Source: an uncultured bacterium (GTDB taxonomy: Bacteria > Patescibacteriota > Minisyncoccia > Phycocordibacterales > Zambryskibacteraceae). From it: a DNA stretch of 64,000 nucleotides. The notes beneath the pieces are model-generated. The model was not told the origin of the DNA. It made no database searches and saw nothing but the letters and a program-made list of their open reading frames with translations. Of the stretch, positions 11,430 to 25,400 are shown piece after piece. The stretch is from contig CAWBLF010000003.1 of the NCBI GenBank assembly GCA_963789635.1, forward strand, positions 67,388-131,387. Direction: 5' to 3'. The position numbers and the translations under genes were made by a program. Positions within the stretch are counted from its first letter, which is position 1, and each line of letters starts with the position of its first letter.

Positions 11430-11434
11430 CATGC

Positions 11435-11458
11435 AAACCCCGAAAGGGGTTTTGCTTT
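11435..11458 (+). terminator. Rho-independent terminator after tRNA-Tyr
   Basis: AAACCCC-GAAA-GGGGTTTTGCTTTG. Confidence 0.6.
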
Positions 11459-11587
11459 GTGCGTCGAGCAAGCAAACTACTTTGCTTGCATGGAAGATTC
11501 GAAAACCTTGAGTATATCGCGTAGCGATAAGAAAGGTGCACAGCTCCTGTCAGGAGAGAATCTTTGTGAACACCAAAAAGAAGCTTT

Positions 11588-13649: not shown

Positions 13650-13800
13650 GATTGCGGGCGGTGAAGGAATCGGTCGGACGTCGATTTCTGCTGAAATCGC
13701 GCACGACCCTGCCTCGCGCCACCGCGCTCCGGCTTTCGATTCCTTTCGCACACGCAATGATGTTCCACTCGGAAGTCTCAGCGGTCTTGCGTGATCATTG
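13650..13800. mobile_element. about 128-bp tRNA-flank module between a 22-bp direct repeat of the tRNA-Trp 3' end (M1 motif)
   Basis: ATTGCGGGCGGTGAAGGAATCG at 13651-13672 and 13797-13818; between them hairpin CGATTTC-tgctg-GAAATCG and a GC-rich second hairpin shared with motif copies at 21962 and 25021. Confidence 0.5.
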
Positions 13801-16524: not shown

Positions 16525-16547
16525 TGGTGCCGGAGAGAGGACTCGAA
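16525..16547. repeat. 23-bp direct repeat of tRNA-Leu(CAA) 3' end (candidate distal att site)
   Basis: TGGTGCCGGAGAGAGGACTCGAA is identical to 22079-22101; an imperfect inverted copy TTCGAGTCCTCTCAC at 16619-16633 lets the interval fold into a long hairpin. Confidence 0.6.
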
Positions 16548-16666
16548 TCTTACAGATTCGGTACACCTTTCTTATCGTACTCCCCGCTAGCGCGTGGTCC
16601 GTGCGATATACTCAAGGTCTTCGAGTCCTCTCACGCAAGTAAAATAATTTACTTGCTTCCGACACG

Positions 16667-17068
16667 CAAAAACCCCTAAAAGGGGTTTTCTTGTGCTGTA
16701 ATTATACACTTTGCGCGAACCTTTTTCGAGCGGAAACTGAACGAATGAATCAGCCCCGCCACCGCCTCGCAGAGCCTCGGCGGACACCAAAGAAAAATGT
16801 TCCTTGCTTTTCGGATTTGCGCGCGACCAATTTCTTCTAAAAAGGAAAGGACATTTTTCTTTGGTGCTCTGCCCTCCAAGTATTCGGGCAGGTGGCGGGA
16901 CTAATGCGGACGAGGTTTTGCGAAAACTTTTTTTTGGGGAAAGGATTTCGCAAAACACTCGGCTAATCTTTTTTGAATTCGGAAGTCGCAAGCGGAGGAG
17001 GAGGGGTTTGGGGAGGAATCCTCCGCTTGCTCCGCTGTTTTCTTTTTGGGGATTTCGGGCGGGCGGTG
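16667..17068 (-). repeat. about 400-bp inverted repeat, copy 1 (non-coding, structured)
   Basis: Reverse complement is about 90-95% identical to 21547-21940; contains a 20-bp perfect internal hairpin (CACCAAAGAAAAATGTCCTT...AAGGAACATTTTTCTTTGGTG) and a CCCC/GGGG terminator-like hairpin. Confidence 0.7.
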
Positions 17069-17079
17069 GACTAGAAATA

Positions 17080-19071
17080 CTAAGGAATAAGTCTTTTGTA
17101 TGTCCTTGGGAAAGGAACGGCGTCTGAAATCATTTCTTTGGCTAGAATTTTAGCAACAAGTCTGTCCAACCCAAGACAAAAACCTCCATGATCTACAGCT
17201 TTGTCTACAATAGAAATATAAAATTCATAATCGCTTATATTGATTCCTGACAATAACATTGATTTTTTAATTTGTGCCCCGTCTGTTTGTCTAATCGCAC
17301 CACTTACAAGCTCCCAGCCATCAACGATAATATCAAAAGTTTCAGTCAATCCACCAGATTTATTTTTTGTATAAAACTTTTTTATCGTATCTGGGTAATC
17401 TTTTATGATAAAAATATCACTAGCATTTCTGCTTTTGATTAACTGACCTAATTTAGCTTCACTCACTAGGCCAAGATCATCGCCCATTGTTACGGGGTTA
17501 CCATTTTCTTGAAGCAGTTTGACTGCTTCACAATATGTCAGCACAGGAATTTTATCAATTTCAGGTAGAACCAAATAGCTTGTAAGACTAAAAGTTTTAA
17601 TCAAATCATCGTTTGTCTTCTTAATTATCTGGCAAGCCAAATAATACAAGTTCTCTAAATTCTTTGGATTTTTCAACTCAATATCTAATCCAATTGATTC
17701 TTGTAGGTGTCGATAGGATTCACTCGTTTCTTTCCTCCAAAAGGGGCCAATTTCATATATCTTCTCCAGACCAGATGCAACAAGAATTTGTTTGTAGATT
17801 TGATTAGATTGTCTCAAAAACGCAGGAGCTCCATTCATCCAATCTACATTTATTGTCCCTCCCTTATCAACTTTTGGTGGGTCGGTAGAAAGGCCTACGA
17901 TATATGGTGTCGTTACCTCTAGAAACTTTTGATCATCCAAATAATTTCTGATAATTTTGTACATTTTACTTCTCTGACTGACCAAATCTAATTTATCCTT
18001 ACCCAGCTTTTTAAAATTACTTTGTCTTTGTTGATTTATATACAGCTTTGCGACATTCCTGTTAATTTGATCAACAATTACACCTAATTTCTTGTCTATA
18101 ATACTTTTTGCTTTACTAATTTCATTTTTTCTTGCCCCAACATTGTTTTCTGCGATTTCTGATAGTTTTTCTATCCCAATAAAGCTACTGACTTTGCCCG
18201 CTAACAATGAGGGCGTTGATAAATCAACAAAGAAAATCCTGTTAAGATCATCAATCTTGTTTAGCAAACCGCCTACAACTCGCTTGGTCTCGGCATTATT
18301 ATCAAGAGCAATAATAATACATGCTATATCTTCCGATGATTTGAAATCTGCAAAAGACGAGTATTGAACACTCGTTTCATTAAGATTTTCTTTTGGAACA
18401 TCAATAATTGTCCTATTGACTATGTGTAGTGGCAAAGCATTTTCTACGTTTAAAATTTTAGCAACAAGCTTTCCGGACTTCCCATAACCAATTAATACAG
18501 ATCTCTTTCCTTCTGGGATATTTTTTACCACAAGCTCACTTGCTATTCTTTCCAAAGAAGTGTTCCCTTCAAAAATACTAGTTTTTAGTTTACATTCATT
18601 GGCAAGCTCATTAAGCCAATCAGCAATGAATACAAAAGGGCTTCCATCTCCGTGTATTCCAGACTTTAATCCTTCAGCCATTTGCGATAAAACCTGAGAA
18701 TCGCCAATTGTAACGCTATGAATTCCGACAGCACATTCGCCTAAAAATTTTATAGCGTTGATCTCATCATAAAATTTTATATCCCTAATCAAACTCATTA
18801 TTCCACCATGTGCATGAGAATCCCAAGTTGATAACATTCTCCCTCTCAGATACTCAAAAGAAAGATCGTCTTGGTAAGAAATTAACAACATAACAGCATT
18901 ACACTTCTTTATCACTGCAATAGAATCAATATTAAGTCCTAGATCATTTTTAAATTGATTTAGAAATTCAGAATCATTTTTTAGATCTGCCAATTGTAAA
19001 TTACTCAGAGCCTTTTCATCAAGTCTTTGATAGTTCAACGCTGCACAAATTATTTTATTAGAGAGTGTCAT
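17080..19071 (-). CDS. fusion protein: glutamyl-tRNA reductase-like (HemA-like) N-domain plus class II aaRS (AspRS/AsnRS-type) catalytic core
   Basis: N-terminus aligns with GluTR (CN(A) active-site Cys region KKCNAVMLL, GDSQVLSQMAEG, Rossmann VLIGYGKSGKLVAKIL...IVNRT, FFVDLSTP); C-terminus has class II motifs 1 to 3 (FLEVTTPYIV; IGPFWRKETSESYRHLQESIGLDIE; HGGFCLGLDRLVAKIL) and no anticodon-binding domain. Confidence 0.55.
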   Translation of the reverse strand: MTLSNKIICAALNYQRLDEKALSNLQLADLKNDSEFLNQFKNDLGLNIDSIAVIKKCNAVMLLISYQDDLSFEYLRGRMLSTWDSHAHGGIMSLIRDIKFYDEINAIKFLGECAVGIHSVTIGDSQVLSQMAEGLKSGIHGDGSPFVFIADWLNELANECKLKTSIFEGNTSLERIASELVVKNIPEGKRSVLIGYGKSGKLVAKILNVENALPLHIVNRTIIDVPKENLNETSVQYSSFADFKSSEDIACIIIALDNNAETKRVVGGLLNKIDDLNRIFFVDLSTPSLLAGKVSSFIGIEKLSEIAENNVGARKNEISKAKSIIDKKLGVIVDQINRNVAKLYINQQRQSNFKKLGKDKLDLVSQRSKMYKIIRNYLDDQKFLEVTTPYIVGLSTDPPKVDKGGTINVDWMNGAPAFLRQSNQIYKQILVASGLEKIYEIGPFWRKETSESYRHLQESIGLDIELKNPKNLENLYYLACQIIKKTNDDLIKTFSLTSYLVLPEIDKIPVLTYCEAVKLLQENGNPVTMGDDLGLVSEAKLGQLIKSRNASDIFIIKDYPDTIKKFYTKNKSGGLTETFDIIVDGWELVSGAIRQTDGAQIKKSMLLSGINISDYEFYISIVDKAVDHGGFCLGLDRLVAKILAKEMISDAVPFPRTYKRLIP

Positions 19072-19817
19072 ATGTTTTTATGAATAACTTCTACAGTTGC
19101 TTGGTGTAGTGGAGTAACCGTAATCTCATTTATTTGAACATGTTCTGAAAGATTTATTACATATTTAATAATATCAGCAATGTCGTCTCCTGATAATGGC
19201 TTAATCCCTTTGTATACATTTTTAGCTTGTTTAGTATCTCCGCCGAAACGAACATTACTAAAGTTTGTTTCAACTAATCCTGGCTGTATATTTGTTACTC
19301 TAATGTCATTTTCTACTACTTCCTTTCTAAGTCCGTCAGAGATAGATTTTACAGCCGCTTTCGTTGCTGCATATACAATACCTTTGGAATAAGATGAGAT
19401 ACCTGCAATAGAACCAATATTGATAATATGTCCGCTGTTTCTTTCTTTCATACCCTTAAGCGCAAGCTTGGAAACCATAAGCAATCCTTTTATGTTGGTA
19501 TCAATCATCTGATCCCAATCCTTTATACAACCGTCTTCTAGTTTTTCTAATCCTAAAGCAAGACCAGCAGAGTTTATTAATACGTCTGGATAAAGATTGA
19601 GAGATTCTAAATTTTCAAACATTTTAGAAATCTGGGACTGGCTAGTAACATCAACAGCGAAAACATGTACGTCCTTATTGTTGCTTAGCTCTGATTTAAT
19701 ATTTTCTAACCCTGAGAGATTTCTGGAGCACAAAATCAATCTATTTCCGTCAGACAGTTTTTTGACACATGCCAATCCAATACCACTGCTTGCTCCTGTA
19801 ATTAGTATCGTTTTCAT
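19068..19817 (-). CDS. short-chain dehydrogenase/reductase (SDR)
   Basis: TGASSGIG cofactor motif, NSAG, catalytic YAATKAA; 4-nt start/stop overlaps with neighbours indicate an operon. Confidence 0.8.
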   Translation of the reverse strand: MKTILITGASSGIGLACVKKLSDGNRLILCSRNLSGLENIKSELSNNKDVHVFAVDVTSQSQISKMFENLESLNLYPDVLINSAGLALGLEKLEDGCIKDWDQMIDTNIKGLLMVSKLALKGMKERNSGHIINIGSIAGISSYSKGIVYAATKAAVKSISDGLRKEVVENDIRVTNIQPGLVETNFSNVRFGGDTKQAKNVYKGIKPLSGDDIADIIKYVINLSEHVQINEITVTPLHQATVEVIHKNI

Positions 19818-21232
19818 AGAGAAGATTTTTTAAAGTTTATTCCCAGCTCAACTTTTTGCTTTTCAGATATTTCAGCTGGCGCATTCATCATTAAATCTTT
19901 TCCATCACCCGTTTTTGCAAAAGCAATGATCTCCCTAATATTTGGCTCCTGTTCAAGGATCATCATAAGTCTGTCGAATCCCCACGCAATGCCACCATGC
20001 GGTGGAGCGCCAAGCTCCAACGCTTTCAACATATGACCAAAATTGTTTTCTATTCTTTCATTGTTATACCCCATAATCTCGAAAGTAGTTCGTAGTGCAG
20101 AAGGTTTGTGATTCCTTATACTTCCGCCGCCGATTTCGAGCCCATTCAAAGTAATATCGTATTGTGTGGTAACAATTTCTCCAATACTTTCTTTCCGCAT
20201 AAATTTCTCAAAATCATTGTCTCTTGGTTTTGAAAAAGGATTATGGGTGAATGTCCACTCGCCAGTGCCATCAACATTATCCTCTCCTGTCTTTTCAAAC
20301 ATAGGGAAATCTACAATCCAAAGAAATGCAAGAAGATTTGTGTCTGTTTTATCCTCTCTTATGTCAGGTTTATCATTCCCATATTTTTTCATTGCTTCTT
20401 TGTAGGACATTCTCGGAAACGGTATTTGTTGTATCTTTTTTTCCGGATAGTTTATTTTTACGATATCAATTAATAGTTTTTCATTTAATTGCATAATGTC
20501 ATCTTCAGTAACAAAGGACATTTCCATATCAAGCTGAGTAAACTCGGGCTGTCTATCCCCGCGAGTATCCTCATCTCTCATACAACGCGCAAACTGAAAA
20601 TATTTTTCAAAACCGCCAACCATCAAAAGTTGCTTATATTGTTGCGGAGATTGAGGAAGTGAATAAAAACTTCCTTTGTAAATTCTGCTTGGCACAACAT
20701 ATGAGCGAGATCCTTCAGGTGTTGGCGCAGACAAAAGAGGCGTTTCTATTTCTAAAAAGTCATCTTTTCCAAGATAATTTCGAATGAAATTTTGAATCTT
20801 AAATCTATTTGCAATATTTTTGTGCATTCTGTCGTTTCGTAAATCCAAATATCTATATTTGAGACGAATAGATTCATTCACCTCCCTAGTATCACCACTA
20901 ATCGGGAACGGCAAAGTTGCCGATTCATTTAAAACATTGATATGCAAAATCTCAAGTTCTATATCTCCATTTAGTATTCCTAATTTTTTATTTTTCTCGG
21001 GTCTTTCGTTTACCTTTCCAGTAACTTCAACTACAAATTCTTCTCGTAGAGTTTTACCGACTTCCATTGCATTACTGTTTGGTAATATCACACCTTGTAC
21101 AATGCCTGATGTATCACGAAAATCCAGAAAGATCATTTTCCCTTGATCACGGCGAACATTAACCCAACCATAAACAATGACGGTTTCCTGTTTTTTTCCT
21201 GACAATTCATTTATGTAAGTTCTTTTTTGCAT
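19814..21232 (-). CDS. aspS: aspartyl-tRNA synthetase, bacterial type lacking the GAD insertion domain
   Basis: OB-fold N-domain, RLKYRYLDLR, motif 1 FLEIETPLL, QSPQQYKQLLMVGG...FARCMRDEDTRGDRQPEFTQLDMEMSF, GGGSIRNH, motif 3 HGGIAWGFDRLMMIL; 472 aa with no approximately 110-aa GAD insert. Confidence 0.8.
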   Translation of the reverse strand: MQKRTYINELSGKKQETVIVYGWVNVRRDQGKMIFLDFRDTSGIVQGVILPNSNAMEVGKTLREEFVVEVTGKVNERPEKNKKLGILNGDIELEILHINVLNESATLPFPISGDTREVNESIRLKYRYLDLRNDRMHKNIANRFKIQNFIRNYLGKDDFLEIETPLLSAPTPEGSRSYVVPSRIYKGSFYSLPQSPQQYKQLLMVGGFEKYFQFARCMRDEDTRGDRQPEFTQLDMEMSFVTEDDIMQLNEKLLIDIVKINYPEKKIQQIPFPRMSYKEAMKKYGNDKPDIREDKTDTNLLAFLWIVDFPMFEKTGEDNVDGTGEWTFTHNPFSKPRDNDFEKFMRKESIGEIVTTQYDITLNGLEIGGGSIRNHKPSALRTTFEIMGYNNERIENNFGHMLKALELGAPPHGGIAWGFDRLMMILEQEPNIREIIAFAKTGDGKDLMMNAPAEISEKQKVELGINFKKSSL

Positions 21233-21237
21233 ATACT

Positions 21238-21447
21238 TTATTTCATTAAAACATCAAGCGAAACGCCAAGCGCGTCTGCAATTTTTTTGACTGTATCAAT
21301 AGTAGGGTTGGGCGTTGAGCCAGCTTCTATTTTAGCAATTGTATGAAAAGCCAAATTTGCCTTTTTTGATAAGACATCTTGAGAAATGCCGAGCTTGTTT
21401 CGGTATTTCTTTATGTTGTCCCCAATTGTGGATTTATCGTTTGACAT
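21238..21447 (-). CDS. XRE-family helix-turn-helix transcriptional regulator
   Basis: 69 aa; HTH_XRE pattern IKKYRNKLGISQDVLSKKANLAFHTIAKIEAG. Confidence 0.75.
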   Translation of the reverse strand: MSNDKSTIGDNIKKYRNKLGISQDVLSKKANLAFHTIAKIEAGSTPNPTIDTVKKIADALGVSLDVLMK

Positions 21448-21546
21448 ATTCGTATAGTTTTACTATTATAGTTAGTATGTATATAAAGTCCTAACTATAT
21501 ACGAGTTAGTATATGAAATTTTCACCATTTAGTCAAACGAAATTGT

Positions 21547-21940
21547 CCGCCCGAAATCGCCAAAAGAAAACAGCGGAGCAAATGGAAAATTCCTCCCCAA
21601 ACCCCTCCTCTTCCATTTGCGACATCCGAATTCAAAAACAAATGAGCCGAAGTTTTGGCGAAATCCTTTCCCCAAAAAATAGTTTTGCCAAAACTTCGTC
21701 CGCATTAGTCCCGCCACCTGCCCGAATACTTGGAGGGCAGAGCACCAAAGAAAAATGTCCTTTCCTTTTTAGAAGAAATTGGTCGCGCGCAAATCTGAAA
21801 AGCAAGGAACATTTTTCTTTGGTGTTCGCCGAGGCTCTGCGAGGCGGTGGCGGGGCTGATTCATTCGTTCAGTTTCCGCTCGAAAAAGGTTCGCGCAAAG
21901 TGTATGATTACAGCACAAGAAAACCCCTTTTAGGGGTTTT
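21547..21940 (+). repeat. about 400-bp inverted repeat, copy 2
   Basis: Near-identical to the reverse complement of 16667-17068; followed directly by a tRNA-Leu 3'-end copy (21944-21961). Confidence 0.7.
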
Positions 21941-21943
21941 CTT

Positions 21944-22078
21944 GTGCCGGAGAGAGGACTCGGTCACACATAAAATTCTGCTGAATTTTTGCGCGACCCC
22001 GCCTCGCACCATCGTGCTCCGGCCTTCTCGTCCTCTCACCAAAATATAAAAACCAGCAGTAAGCTGGTATTTATATTT
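21944..22078. mobile_element. about 127-bp tRNA-flank module (M2 motif) between an 18-bp direct repeat of the tRNA-Leu(CAA) 3' end
   Basis: TGCCGGAGAGAGGACTCG at 21944-21961 and 22081-22098; hairpin AAAATTC-tgctg-GAATTTT; GCGCGACCCCGCCTCGCACCATCGTGCTCCGG; imperfect inverted arm CTCGTCCTCTC; AT-rich spacer. Confidence 0.5.
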
Positions 22079-22162
22079 TGGTGCCGGAGAGAGGACTCGA
22101 ACCTCCACCCCTTGCGAGACACGATTTTGAGTCGTGCGCGTCTGCCATTCCGCCACTCCGGC
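22079..22162 (-). tRNA. tRNA-Leu (anticodon CAA), CCA encoded
   Basis: Reverse complement gives GCCGGAG-TG-GCGGAATGGCAGACGC-G-CACGA-CTCAAAA-TCGTG, variable arm TCTCGCAAGGGGT, GGAGG-TTCGAGT-CCTCT-CTCCGGC-A-CCA. Confidence 0.8.
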
Positions 22163-24976: not shown

Positions 24977-25400
24977 GATTTGGGCACTTGTTATTACTGC
25001 AACGAACAGGGATTGTTTTTGGTCACACATAAAATTCTGATGAATTTTTGCGCGACCCAGCCTCGCGCCGTCGCGCTCCGGTTCACCAAGACCCGCGCGC
25101 AGGCAGCCCCGTTGCCTGCTTCTATTCGGACTTGTCAATTTTGTGTGGATTATGATTTTTGCAAGATTTATTTGAACAGCGCACGGGGATTGTTTTTAGT
25201 CACAAATATTTTGCTCACCGCCATTCGCAAAATTTTGCGACCCCGACTCGGCATTTTTTCTGCTGAAAAAATATGCCTCCGTCTCACAAAAACAAGTGAG
25301 TACGCAGTCTATACTGCGTACTTTCAAAACTACTTCATTAACTTATGCGGATTGTGATTTGGGCAAGCTTTATTACTGCAACGAACAGGGATTGTTTTTG
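24977..25400. mobile_element. about 334-bp insert downstream of topA bounded by 45-bp direct repeats derived from the topA 3' end; holds motif copies M3 and M5
   Basis: 24977-25021 matches 25356-25400 (about 40/45), which encodes the topA C-terminus (CSNKACPNHNPHKL); interior has GTCACACATAAAATTCTGATGAATTTTTGCGCGACCCAGCCTCGCGCC and a rearranged copy at 25215-25275. Confidence 0.5.

Follow-up and report, generated by a model that had tools for sequence, protein, structure and literature searches.

Two near-identical sequences that face each other across a four-gene operon could be the ends of a mobile element, the borders of an invertible segment, the source of a structured RNA, or modules of another kind. 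We addressed this question in a 64-kb stretch of a patescibacterial genome (64,000 nucleotides, hereafter the window) and in metagenome contigs with related sequences, which are called arms below.

The arms and the operon between them

Repeat searching and blastn delimited an inverted pair at 16658-17062 (plus strand) and 21547-21951 (minus strand), each 405 nt long. Alignment of one arm against the other gave 93.1% identity, with 27 of the 407 columns differing, including 4 indels, in agreement with the original prediction of inverted copies of about 400 bp and 90-95% identity. The similarity of the arms cannot be chance. Neither blastn nor the pair search found a third copy in the 64-kb window. 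As predicted, the pair lies outside an xre-aspS-SDR-fusion operon, and the annotation of this cargo was borne out and refined by the Pfam and PDB matches. The cassette is composed of the following features:

16658..17062, no strand: tail arm (left inverted repeat), non-coding, with multiple hairpins (repeat search, folding, blastn, family alignment and covariation)
17080..19071, minus strand: cargo gene 4, a 663-aa fusion (Pfam GlutR_N, Shikimate_DH and tRNA-synt_2)
19068..19817, minus strand: cargo gene 3, a short-chain dehydrogenase/reductase (SDR) of 249 aa (Pfam adh_short, E 9e-49)
19814..21232, minus strand: cargo gene 2, a bacterial-type aspartyl-tRNA synthetase (AspRS) of 472 aa (Pfam; PDB 6hhv and 1efw, E about 3e-126)
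21238..21447, minus strand: cassette regulator, a 69-aa Xre/C-protein-like HTH protein (Pfam HTH_3; PADLOC control protein, HTH_VI and capH)
21448..21546, no strand: head control region with divergent promoter-like sites (promoter scan)
21547..21951, no strand: head arm (right inverted repeat), with an outer-edge palindrome at 21913-21947 (repeat search, blastn)

The N-terminal half of the fusion is glutamyl-tRNA-reductase (GluTR)-like (PDB 4n7r and 1gpj, E about 1e-9) and its C-terminal half is an archaeal-type AspRS catalytic core lacking the anticodon-binding domain (PDB 1n9w, E 5e-37), while the AspRS of cargo gene 2 carries an OB anticodon-binding domain. Homologues of the fusion form more than 100 clusters in Patescibacteria. 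The last cargo gene ends 17 nt from the inner end of the tail arm, and the G+C content of the cargo (0.33-0.36) differs from that of the flanks (0.43-0.47). At the cassette head, xre is the first gene and is predicted to be driven by a TTGACT-17-TATACT site on the minus strand of the control region; modules 88-95% identical to it in nucleotide sequence head cassettes with other cargo. A small Xre-type HTH gene leading the operon is a trait of R-M units regulated by controller (C) proteins, although the cargo in the window is not itself a restriction-modification (R-M) system.

Open reading frames of 134 and 178 aa lie over the arms (16587-16991, minus strand, and 21513-22049, plus strand), and their products are 89% identical over 107 aa. 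The original prediction had dismissed them as repeat artefacts, correctly so: the overlapping frames are lost among arm copies elsewhere, and the arms are non-coding. Because the indels among those copies are not multiples of three and break the frame, the arm ORFs are not genes. These ORFs, together with a related contig (L114) that is perfectly palindromic and probably misassembled, might suggest that the arms arose by a recent local duplication, through misassembly or from pieces of a protein-coding gene, an explanation that we consider hardly conceivable. Arms are carried by at least 120 independent contigs from many samples, and the two arms of the window carry different population alleles of hairpins H3 and H4, each of which recurs at many other loci. 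Contig recurrence, the comparison of arm copies and the frame-breaking indels refute this explanation. The right arm is 94.9% identical to an arm of locus L006, and the fusion proteins of these two loci are only 79% identical.

The island at tRNA-Leu(CAA)

The cassette and several small tRNA-derived units together make up a 5,554-nt insertion at the 3' end of tRNA-Leu(CAA), edged by exact 22-nt direct repeats of the tRNA 3' end (16526-16547 and 22080-22101). In a sister strain (L133) the site is empty, and the same chromosomal flank runs directly into the tRNA gene. Outside the arms, the island and its target comprise the following:

16526..16547, minus strand: direct repeat 1, a displaced tRNA-Leu(CAA) 3' end from T-loop to acceptor end (exact 22-mer GGTGCCGGAGAGAGGACTCGAA, also at 22080-22101)
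16548..16656, minus strand: unit L, the island end (sequence inspection)
21943..21964, minus strand: direct repeat 2, a degenerate copy of the tRNA-Leu 3' end, 19/22 (repeat searches, family D1)
21965..22040, minus strand: unit R, an inverted tRNA T-arm copy (22027-22039) plus module B
22079..22162, minus strand: tRNA-Leu(CAA), the integration target (ARAGORN; Rfam tRNA, 57.3 bits)

Unit L consists of module A (TTGAGTATATCGC...GATAAGAAAGGTG), an inverted copy of the tRNA T-loop and T-stem (16620-16634) and a hairpin (GCAAGTAAA...TTACTTGC, 16635-16656), and its homologue adjoins tRNA-Tyr at about 11431-11570. Unit R, whose module B reads GGAGC.CG..GG.GCGAGGC.GGGTCGCGC...TTCAGCAGAA, is a small dispersed repeat with further copies by tRNA-Trp (13655-13750) and at 25021-25081. 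Direct repeat 3 is the last 22 nt of tRNA-Leu(CAA) itself (22080-22101), and a terminator hairpin lies at 22052-22068.

Each arm had been predicted to be followed by sequence derived from the tRNA-Leu 3' end. Such pieces exist, the degenerate one abutting the right arm and the exact one 110 nt outside the left arm, but they lie on the same strand, as direct repeats, outside the inverted repeat; they belong not to the arms but to an island, as its att-type repeats. Direct repeat 1 is the attR-like distal boundary of this island, and direct repeat 2, between the cassette and unit R, is an internal att-like site, as expected from tandem integration. As is typical of tDNA islands, the insertion lies in the 3' part of a tRNA gene, the gene is regenerated and a displaced 3' fragment forms a direct repeat; here identity to the tRNA ends in the T-loop. 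Pfam detected no integrase gene in the island, whose genes are xre, AspRS, SDR and the fusion only, and the window contains no large serine recombinase (LSR) and, by a heuristic regular expression, no tyrosine-recombinase box II motif. The island resembles an integrase-less (CIME-like) island; its delivery to the tRNA gene would have been a separate step that relied on a site-specific integrase, either supplied in trans or lost afterwards.

Comparable integrase-less islands at tRNA genes are cis-mobilisable elements (CIMEs) formed by accretion, Islander-type tDNA islands (PMC4383910) and tycheposon-shaped islands (bioRxiv 10.1101/2020.12.28.424599). The island in the window shares with these types the 3' tRNA insertion that regenerates the gene, the displaced 22-nt repeat, the internal degenerate repeat and the absence of an integrase of its own. 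This likeness covers the outer island only and not the arms; no cargo between long conserved inverted repeats is described in the abstracts of PMC4383910 and bioRxiv 10.1101/2020.12.28.424599.

The suggestion that the arms behave like the ends of a composite transposon did not hold up. The empty-site comparison places the insertion edges at the tRNA-Leu direct repeats and not at the arm tips, and the arms are 405-nt non-coding modules rather than IS copies, with no transposase inside and no target duplication. Composite transposon or IS ends were also rejected on the grounds that the arms had no match in phage, plasmid and viral collections and that Pfam found no transposase domain in the cassette.

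Arm-bracketed cassettes in metagenomes and the hairpins of their arms

Comparison with other Patescibacteria, proposed with the original prediction, identified the 400-bp unit as a dispersed one. The inner 22 nt of the arm occur in at least 120 metagenome contigs, and relaxed matching revealed inward-facing pairs in nearly every contig long enough to hold both ends. About 25 pairs, spaced 2.0-8.0 kb apart, each frame a single operon. The layout consists of an arm, a control region of about 100 nt with an HTH gene, one unidirectional operon and the inverted arm. The HTH gene (66-81 aa) starts 85-175 nt inside one arm and encodes a small regulator of the Xre or sometimes ArsR-like type, and the second arm begins 10-35 nt past the last stop codon. 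The cargo includes many R-M systems, GmrSD, a Pycsar-type TM protein, a P-type ATPase, a Liv ABC transporter, a GluRS-like + S51 + GT + SAM_HAT set, a GDSL/PG-binding protein and the aaRS operon. In contig L120 an LSR homologue occupies the cargo position. These inverted-repeat-bracketed cassettes of accessory genes constitute a large and apparently undescribed family in Patescibacteria.

Arm length across the family ranges from 60 to 430 nt. Identity to the window arm is 80-95% in more than 80 copies, with truncation always from the outer side: the inner ~60 nt are nearly invariant, whereas the outer 300-370 nt are modular and end in at least three variants, often truncated. Modular hairpin repeats of 100-300 bp that stand alone in intergenic regions include the pneumococcal BOX, the Correia elements of Neisseria and REPINs. 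Like the arms, they are modular, do not encode proteins, consist of successive hairpins, exist in many copies, some of them variant or truncated, and can influence transcription; unlike the arms, they do not form inverted pairs that bracket cargo operons.

Within the arm we found imperfect inverted repeats with arms of 27 and 34 nt (I3 and I4), a perfect 12-bp stem (GCAAGCGGAGGA/TCCTCCGCTTGC) and an 11-bp stem. The predicted perfect internal hairpin of 20 bp was not found. The CCCC-loop-GGGG hairpin does occur at both outer edges (16668-16690, the palindrome AAAACCCC/GGGGTTTT of the tail arm, and 21913-21947); it is followed by only 4 T and received no call in the terminator scan. Both strands fold far more stably than their shuffles (z = -5.6 and -7.3, the latter for the outward strand). 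In the family alignment of arms, both partners have changed in 9 of the 40 consensus pairs; hairpin H3 occurs in four complementary alleles, and H4 has only two main alleles plus broken hybrids. In palindromic DNA, template switching between hairpin arms can be a selection-free source of such compensatory changes.

These compensatory changes and the z of -7.3 on the outward strand would also be expected if the arm were the gene for, or a cis-acting part of, a structured RNA of ~400 nt read outward from the cassette, which we regard as unlikely. The arm would then serve as a 3' UTR at the tail and as a divergent transcript at the head, the RNA would stabilise or terminate cassette transcripts or guide or assist a recombinase, and the inverted layout would exist only because both ends need an arm. 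Where wobble positions vary, they fit the outward strand (column pairs 89-247, 97-118, 98-117, 129-202, 149-181 and 388-407 of the family alignment), and the H4 hybrids have 3 G-U and 1 C-A on it. No separate terminator lies between the last stop codon and the arm, and in the window a hairpin and T-run follow just past the outer tip. However, G-U (17) and A-C (21) are equally rare among the pairs predicted for both strands, so there is no clear strand signal, and DNA hairpins would look alike. At the head, an 11/12 promoter match (TTGACA-17-TATTAT, plus strand of the control region) that points outward into the arm would favour such an RNA, but this site is uncertain because it overlaps the xre ATG-TCA start codons and is not conserved in other xre subfamilies. 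Many functional-looking cassettes, moreover, have on one side nothing left of the arm but the inner 60 nt, with most hairpins gone (L011, L101).

The proposed cmscan search assigned the arms to no known RNA family. Against Rfam 15, whose families include T-box, HEARO/omega RNA, ROOL, GOLLD and tmRNA, the arms had no match even at E up to 10 apart from sub-threshold chance matches to miRNA and CRISPR-DR models, and only tRNAs reached the gathering score in the window. A cassette-specific antisense or regulatory RNA, as had been suggested, is not supported: unrelated cargo lies between the same arms, and distant relatives of this aaRS operon lack arms altogether.

Transposition, inversion or exchange of cassettes

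Contig comparisons demonstrate, at the level of sequence, that the cassettes have recently been mobile. Contigs L051 and L108 share 100% identical cargo and the inner ~290 nt of one arm, and then switch to different outer-arm variants inside a hairpin. The same cargo thus occurs in different contexts with the identity breakpoint inside the arm, and xre modules and cargo reassort between cassettes. One flank, an LSR gene beside a tRNA, adjoins different cargo in both orientations (L045, L057, L061, L114, L118, L125); no locus with both flanks identical but different cargo was seen among the compared contigs. This LSR gene is itself bracketed by ~250-nt inverted copies of a 'module X'.

Mobile insertion cassettes are exemplified by MIC231 of Bacillus cereus. 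Flanking inverted repeats also delimit the 'transposon-like' R-M units of Furuta, Abe and Kobayashi 2010 (PMC2853133). Both resemble the arm cassettes in their compactness, varied contexts and passengers, often R-M, held between inverted repeats with no transposase. Their repeats, however, are IS-type ends of 26-65 bp with conserved outer tips and 8-bp target duplications, whereas the arm cassettes have hairpin arms of 60-430 nt common to more than 100 cassettes, conserved at the inner end, with an HTH regulator in each cassette, no target duplication and breakpoints inside the arms.

By this analogy, the arms might be the terminal inverted repeats of a transposon of the non-autonomous, foldback or MIC-like sort, with a transposase encoded elsewhere or the adjoining LSR binding them to cut and paste the whole cassette. 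Cargo that lacks a transposase but lies between inverted repeats typifies mobile insertion cassettes and 'transposon-like' R-M units (PMC2853133), the same cargo appears in different contexts, an LSR gene adjoins 10 of 54 arms, and the almost invariant inner core looks like a protein-binding site. Yet it is the cargo-side end that is conserved and indispensable, while the outer tips vary or are cut short; transposon ends show the opposite pattern. Neither the window nor L051 has a target-site duplication or direct repeat at the arm tips, the tRNA repeats that edge the insertion in the window lie 110 nt and 0 nt beyond the arms, and the identity breakpoint falls within the arm and not at its tip. 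A scan of about 70 cargo proteins detected no transposase, none of about 25 paired cassettes proved to be an autonomous relative encoding one between such repeats, and a segment between inverted sites can only be inverted, not excised, by a serine or tyrosine recombinase. We therefore consider such a transposon improbable.

Inversion is something long inverted repeats do undergo, and the arms could be the crossover sites of a segment flipped by a serine recombinase or RecA as a phase-variation switch. Both cassette orientations relative to the LSR flank, and the module X copies bracketing that gene, are in line with this. Both orientations, however, were seen only across different cassettes, and no two contigs share cargo and flank in opposite orientation. 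In the window, where the arms form an inverted pair, there is no recombinase within the 64 kb, and the promoter and regulator lie inside the segment, so a flip would produce no on/off switching. A phase-variation switch is very unlikely; the two orientations against one conserved flank fit inversion or orientation-free insertion.

We give about even odds to the explanation that cassettes are exchanged by way of the arms, which would act as portable stretches of homology and as insulators. Incoming DNA, taken up or island-borne, would recombine with resident arms in a RecA-type reaction, and whole regulator-led operons would be swapped. Because both arms are the same sequence inverted, a cassette could be inserted either way round or flip in place. 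The tail arm, read outward, would form the structured 3' end of the operon transcript, an arrangement by which the arms may shield the cassette from neighbouring sequence. Exchange of cassettes via flanking homology after natural transformation is known from the minimal mobile elements of Neisseria and from switching at the pneumococcal capsule locus. There too, in naturally competent bacteria, alternative gene sets occupy one slot and homologous recombination takes place in conserved flanks. Those flanks, however, are ordinary chromosomal genes, whereas each arm cassette moves together with its own flanks, an inverted non-coding module that is portable and dedicated to this role. Among Patescibacteria, genes for pili and competence are widespread (PMC12455944).

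Homologous exchange needs resident target arms and leaves the arrival of arms at new sites unexplained. The near-invariance of the inner ~60 nt and the selection on hairpins exceed what homology arms need and point to an additional sequence-specific protein-binding or RNA function. An LSR encoded just outside the arm, as in 10 of the 54 well-flanked copies, could be what actually catalyses the movement. The arms might then be a dedicated cassette-exchange platform, with the inverted 60-nt cores serving as LSR sites or acting in a step assisted by outward-read arm RNA, which we think quite unlikely. Integron attC cassettes resemble the arm cassettes in having a common structured, imperfectly palindromic recombination module on diverse exchangeable genes. 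They carry one attC each, form arrays in direct orientation, are usually promoter-less and need an adjacent IntI tyrosine recombinase and attI, whereas the arm cassettes have two inverted arms, their own promoter and regulator and no IntI, and are mostly single; in the window the heuristic expression found no tyrosine-recombinase box II motif. If the arms do form a dedicated exchange platform, they would represent another bacterial system of the integron kind, the second of its sort, and a naturally occurring equivalent of recombinase-mediated cassette exchange, in which complete regulator-led operons would be swapped or flipped and the inverted geometry would make the cassettes undeletable.

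Inverted arms and the operon they enclose

The original prediction placed two near-identical inverted copies of approximately 400 bp around a four-gene cargo. This description was confirmed: the arms of the window are both 405 nt long, inverted relative to one another, and 93% identical, with 27 of 407 alignment columns differing, four of them by indels. A repeat search found no third copy in the 64-kb window. The enclosed genes are poorest in G+C (0.33-0.36), the chromosome around them has 0.43-0.47, and the arms have ~0.50. Each strand of an arm folded far more stably than its shuffled controls (z = -5.6 and -7.3).

Features of the cassette in the window
16658-17062: left (tail) arm
21547-21951: right (head) arm, inverted relative to the left
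17080-21447, minus strand: enclosed operon of four genes, encoding a 69-aa Xre/controller-type HTH regulator, a bacterial-type AspRS, an SDR, and a 663-aa fusion protein
17080-21232, minus strand: the unusual cargo of a full AspRS, the SDR, and the GluTR-like::AspRS-core fusion

The ORFs overlapping the two arms lie on opposite strands and encode products that are 89% identical. Since arm copies elsewhere differ by 1-, 2-, and 5-nt indels that break the frames, these ORFs are non-coding, as the original prediction held in calling them repeat artefacts, and a protein-coding fragment was rejected as the nature of the arm. An origin in phage or plasmid sequence was also rejected, as searches of viral contigs and of phage and plasmid records gave no match to the arms. 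A known RNA family was rejected as well, neither arm having a match in Rfam at the gathering score or at E up to 10.

The 663-aa protein joins a glutamyl-tRNA-reductase-like half to an archaeal-type AspRS catalytic core devoid of the anticodon-binding domain. Its homologues form more than 100 clusters in Patescibacteria, many of them on contigs of 4.3-4.5 kb, which is the inter-arm distance. The AspRS-SDR-fusion set as a whole is conserved across more than 100 Patescibacteria clusters, armed or armless, and no description of it was found in the literature; the three enzymes suggest that an activated aspartyl (or related) ester is reduced, in a tRNA-dependent manner, to an aldehyde or alcohol. 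Close relatives (contigs L004 and L006, 79-89% amino acid identity) have the same arms on both sides, whereas more distant ones (L003, L001, and L007, 61-74%) carry the three enzymes without xre and without inverted repeats, so the arms are independent of the aminoacyl-tRNA synthetase (aaRS) cargo. A role of the arm as a tRNA-like substrate or T-box-like leader for this cargo was rejected because the same arms bracket unrelated genes and because the aaRS operons of L003, L007, and L001 lack both arms and xre. A known defense system was likewise rejected for the window cassette, in which PADLOC matched the Xre protein only.

A widespread family of arm-bracketed cassettes

The inner 22 nt of the arm (TTGCTCCGCTNTTTTCTTTTGG) are present in at least 120 metagenome contigs and in none of the viral contigs, so the arm is indeed a dispersed repeat, and a local artefact is excluded as its explanation. 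With relaxed matching, a pair of inward-facing motifs was found in almost every contig that reaches both ends. Many contigs end 20-90 nt outside the inner motif, as expected where assembly breaks at a multi-copy repeat, and the arms thus explain why cassettes assemble as isolated, repeat-terminated contigs of 3-8 kb. The related sequences are all metagenome contigs, many of them cut within the arms, and their taxonomy follows the names given by the sources (Patescibacteria, Parcubacteria, Paceibacterota, Kaiserbacteria, Falkowbacteria, and Saccharibacteria). The 6195-nt contig L114 is in its entirety a perfect palindrome centered on the cassette, the two flanks being the same over more than 1.8 kb; this is probably the assembler walking back via the inverted repeat rather than biology.

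Approximately 25 arm pairs are spaced at 2.0-8.0 kb, each around one unidirectional operon. At the cassette head, an HTH regulator gene starts 85-175 nt beyond the conserved arm motif; the regulators belong to several Xre subfamilies (66-81 aa), and three contigs (L055, L063, and L121) have an HTH protein of ~100 aa that looks ArsR-like by its sequence. At the tail, the last stop codon is an estimated ~10-35 nt off the inner edge of the other arm (17 nt in the window). The cargo includes many type II restriction-modification (R-M) systems (N6_N4_Mtase with Tsp45I, MvaI/BcnI, or HNH), other defense-type genes (GmrSD and a Pycsar-type transmembrane protein), two ABC systems (a Liv-type transporter and an exporter), a P-type ATPase accompanied by a glycosyltransferase, and the AspRS operon. 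Also found were a set of a GluRS-like protein with peptidase S51, a glycosyltransferase, and SAM hydroxide adenosyltransferase, a 1,111-aa GDSL/peptidoglycan-binding protein, and large proteins without a Pfam match, one of which has only a C-terminal GNAT domain. None of the scanned cargo proteins is a transposase or integrase. The cassettes thus make up a widespread family, each led by a regulator and set between inverted copies of a single non-coding module that is conserved and structured; no description of these arms was found in the literature.

Individual cargoes of other contigs
L050 134-4949, minus strand: a second aaRS-like accessory operon on the same platform, with genes for a GluRS/GlnRS-like protein (class I, truncated), peptidase S51 (cyanophycinase/dipeptidase E family), a glycosyltransferase, and SAM hydroxide adenosyltransferase
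L051 842-3622, plus strand: MvaI/BcnI-type R-M pair, then a Pycsar-effector-like transmembrane protein, then a 242-aa protein without a Pfam match
L004 1-5037: DUF87/TraG-like P-loop ATPase genes and a 945-aa protein upstream of the aaRS cassette, which hint that this cassette sits in a conjugative or T4SS-type element

More than 80 arm copies match the window arm at 80-95% identity. Among them, the sequence hardly varies in the inner ~60 nt (GGGGAGGAAT..TTGCTCCGCTGTTTTCTTTTGGCGAATTTCGGGCGG), whose border with the cargo is sharp. The outer arm has at least three variants (type A in the window, beginning (G)TGCTGTAATTATACAC) and is often shortened to around position 95, 130, 250, 285, 315, or 348; some cassettes retain the 60-nt core alone on one side, and in L015 and L011 the two arms of the same cassette differ in variant. 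Hairpins follow one another along the arm and carry compensatory substitutions, double changes being present in 9 of 40 consensus pairs among 45 distinct copies. Hairpin H3 has four complementary alleles (GGC/GCC, GCG/CGC, GCC/GGC, and GCA/TGC), H4 has two (GCAAGCGGAGGA/TCCTCCGCTTGC and GCAAATGGAAAA/TTTTCCATTTGC) plus a few broken hybrids, and the long hairpin H2 switches between ATGTCC/GGAACAT and ACACCC/GGAGTGT. The H3 and H4 alleles differ between the two window arms and each recurs at many loci, so these arms are not a recent local duplication.

This upkeep of hairpins bears on an RNA function of the arms, which is a live alternative. Among the pairs predicted on both strands, G-U (17) and A-C (21) are equally rare; at several variable positions, wobble pairing is possible only on the outward-read strand, which at the tail arm is the operon strand. 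An inward terminator/antiterminator formed through the duplicated CUCCGCU after H4 was rejected, as the AT-type H4 allele cannot pair alternatively. Many outward arm ends read ...CACCA, where the 3' end of a tRNA sits in contig L061; no T-arm or acceptor fold was found at such ends to support a tRNA-like 3' end, and that candidate was set aside.

Reassortment, serine recombinases, and tRNA-adjacent islands

The contigs L051 and L108 share a 100% identical cargo in different contexts. Their identity extends across the inner ~290 nt of the arm; beyond this, within H2, a type-B outer arm gives way to a type-A one. A crossover at such a position is characteristic of homologous recombination, whereas a site-specific enzyme would cut at the edge of the arm and a transposase at its tip. 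The original suggestion of composite-transposon ends is not supported, and no target-site duplication is visible at the arm tips. The ~300-nt xre module is 88-95% identical in nucleotides among cassettes with unrelated cargo; the window type heads an ABC exporter (L090) and a GmrSD system (L110) and is also present in L071, L118, and L127, whereas the aaRS cassettes of L004 and L006 have another type. The L006 arm and the right window arm share 94.9% identity, against just 79% for the two fusion proteins. Six loci (L045, L057, L061, L114, L118, and L125) have a common chromosomal flank, ~90% identical, and different cargo. As judged from these alignments, the cassettes have moved and been reassorted recently. 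The common flank is faced by the cassette head in some of the six loci and by the tail in others; inversion of cassettes via their arms is a live alternative here.

In this flank, a gene for a large serine recombinase (LSR; Resolvase, Recombinase, and Zn_ribbon_recom domains) separates the arm from a tRNA gene, and inverted copies of a module X, ~250 nt each, stand on either side of the recombinase gene. Of the 54 copies with 1.5 kb or more of flank, 10 have an LSR homologue just outside the arm. Movement of the cassettes by a recombinase or transposase acting in trans is also a live alternative. In the window, tblastn with an LSR query found no LSR, a motif regex as the sole method found no tyrosine recombinase, and these together with a domain search found no integrase gene in the island or window.

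Recombinase and LAGLIDADG_3 ORFs of related contigs
L061 6148-7749, minus strand: LSR gene between tRNA gene and cassette arm
L061 6180-6340 and 7793-7948: copies of module X
L120 2013-2789, minus strand: LSR homologue (40% identical to that of L061) in cargo position by an arm core; the sole candidate seen for a cassette with its own recombinase
L061 5227-5997, plus strand: free-standing LAGLIDADG_3 ORF directly upstream of a tRNA-Cys/tRNA-Leu pair
L131 1732-2535, plus strand: free-standing LAGLIDADG_3 ORF

The arrangement of LSR and module X recurs in L045, L057, L118, L125, and L051. Module X is rich in hairpins, and its outer end meets the CACCA of the tRNA on one side and the arm tip as TGGTG on the other, so that the arm tip stands where a tRNA 3' end would be.

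Pieces of the tRNA-Leu 3' end, which the original prediction noted beside each arm, were found near the window arms; they are direct rather than inverted repeats.

Repeats and mini-unit or module sites
16526-16547: exact 22-mer GGTGCCGGAGAGAGGACTCGAA
22080-22101: exact direct copy of the 22-mer, within tRNA-Leu(CAA)
21943-21964: degenerate copy of the 22-mer
21965-22040, 16548-16656, and 25021-25081: mini-unit or module sites
~13655-13750: unit at tRNA-Trp
~11431-11570: unit at tRNA-Tyr
L131 12963-13025: mini-unit or module site in a sister strain

In the sister strain L133 (ParB 94% identical), located through ParB homologues, the promoter region of the 208-aa neighbor joins the tRNA-Leu 3' end directly, with one 22-mer copy and no arm; an exact look-up of the 208-aa protein gave no match. 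Because this site is uninterrupted, the window carries a 5,554-nt insertion in the tRNA 3' end. Identity to the tRNA stops in the T-loop. In its sequence, this island bears the classical footprint of site-specific integration. On the minus strand from the tRNA, a mini-unit (terminator, inverted T-arm copy, and module B) is followed by the degenerate repeat, by arm-cassette-arm, and by a second unit (hairpins, inverted T-arm copy, and module A), a layout suggestive of two integrations in tandem. In another sister strain, L131 (91%), this place is taken by an unrelated 317-aa gene. Elsewhere, a tRNA, tmRNA, or partial tRNA often touches the arm tips (L004, L011, L016, L107, and L119), and these comparisons show that the cassettes reside in tRNA-adjacent islands.

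Mini-units of 80-180 nt ending in a duplicated tRNA 3' end follow the window tRNA-Trp and tRNAs in L030, L117, L119, and L126; the window tRNA-Tyr unit has hairpins, an inverted T-arm copy, and module A, with merely a degenerate trace of the tRNA 3' end. They consist of an inverted copy of the T-loop/T-stem of the adjacent tRNA, a 55-65-nt module (A or B), and a direct tRNA 3'-end copy, and both flanking pieces match the adjoining tRNA, be it Leu, Trp, or Tyr. Module B is also found alone. The units look like mini-elements targeting tRNA 3' ends.

Proposed cassette exchange and described systems

We give an even chance to the reading that cassettes are exchanged whole by RecA-type recombination, with the arms as their portable homology. 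DNA from outside, perhaps acquired by natural uptake, would recombine at the arms and exchange the cassette in full; its orientation would be immaterial, as both arms have the same sequence, and an arm read outward would act as a structured operon 3' end and insulate the operon from its neighbors. Pili and competence genes are prevalent in Patescibacteria (PMC12455944), which makes natural uptake a possible source of the DNA. The homology reading leaves unexplained the near-invariance of the inner 60 nt, the upkeep of the hairpins, and the arrival of arms at new sites, and for this reason the trans-acting enzyme, the RNA function, and inversion all stay alive as rivals.

Among the nearest described systems, transposase-less cargo between inverted repeats, as here, is found in MIC231, a cassette between IS-type inverted repeats, and in certain R-M units. 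The latter have 26-65-bp IS-type inverted repeats and 8-bp duplications and no transposase (Furuta et al., PMC2853133). Integron cassettes and flank-homology cassette exchange in competent bacteria are also among the nearest, and integrase-less tRNA islands match the outer island only, the features of a tDNA island being found in the outer 5.5-kb insertion alone. Since the arms lack the defining features of transposon ends and of integrons and are undescribed in the literature searched, we rate the cassettes as a previously undescribed variety of non-autonomous cassettes bracketed by inverted repeats; there is a modest chance that they form a distinct cassette-exchange system.

Patescibacteria have tiny genomes and few recognized mobile elements, and their gain of accessory and defense genes is poorly understood. 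In the arm family, one portable non-coding module brackets R-M systems, other defense genes, transporters, and odd metabolic operons, which would make the family a concrete vehicle for the flexible genome of Patescibacteria and the arm a ready bioinformatic marker for accessory genes of the phylum. If the arms are substrates of a dedicated recombinase, the cassettes would represent a new kind of gene cassette beside integrons, and their inverted-site geometry could then serve as a genetic tool for organisms in which transformation is only now becoming feasible.
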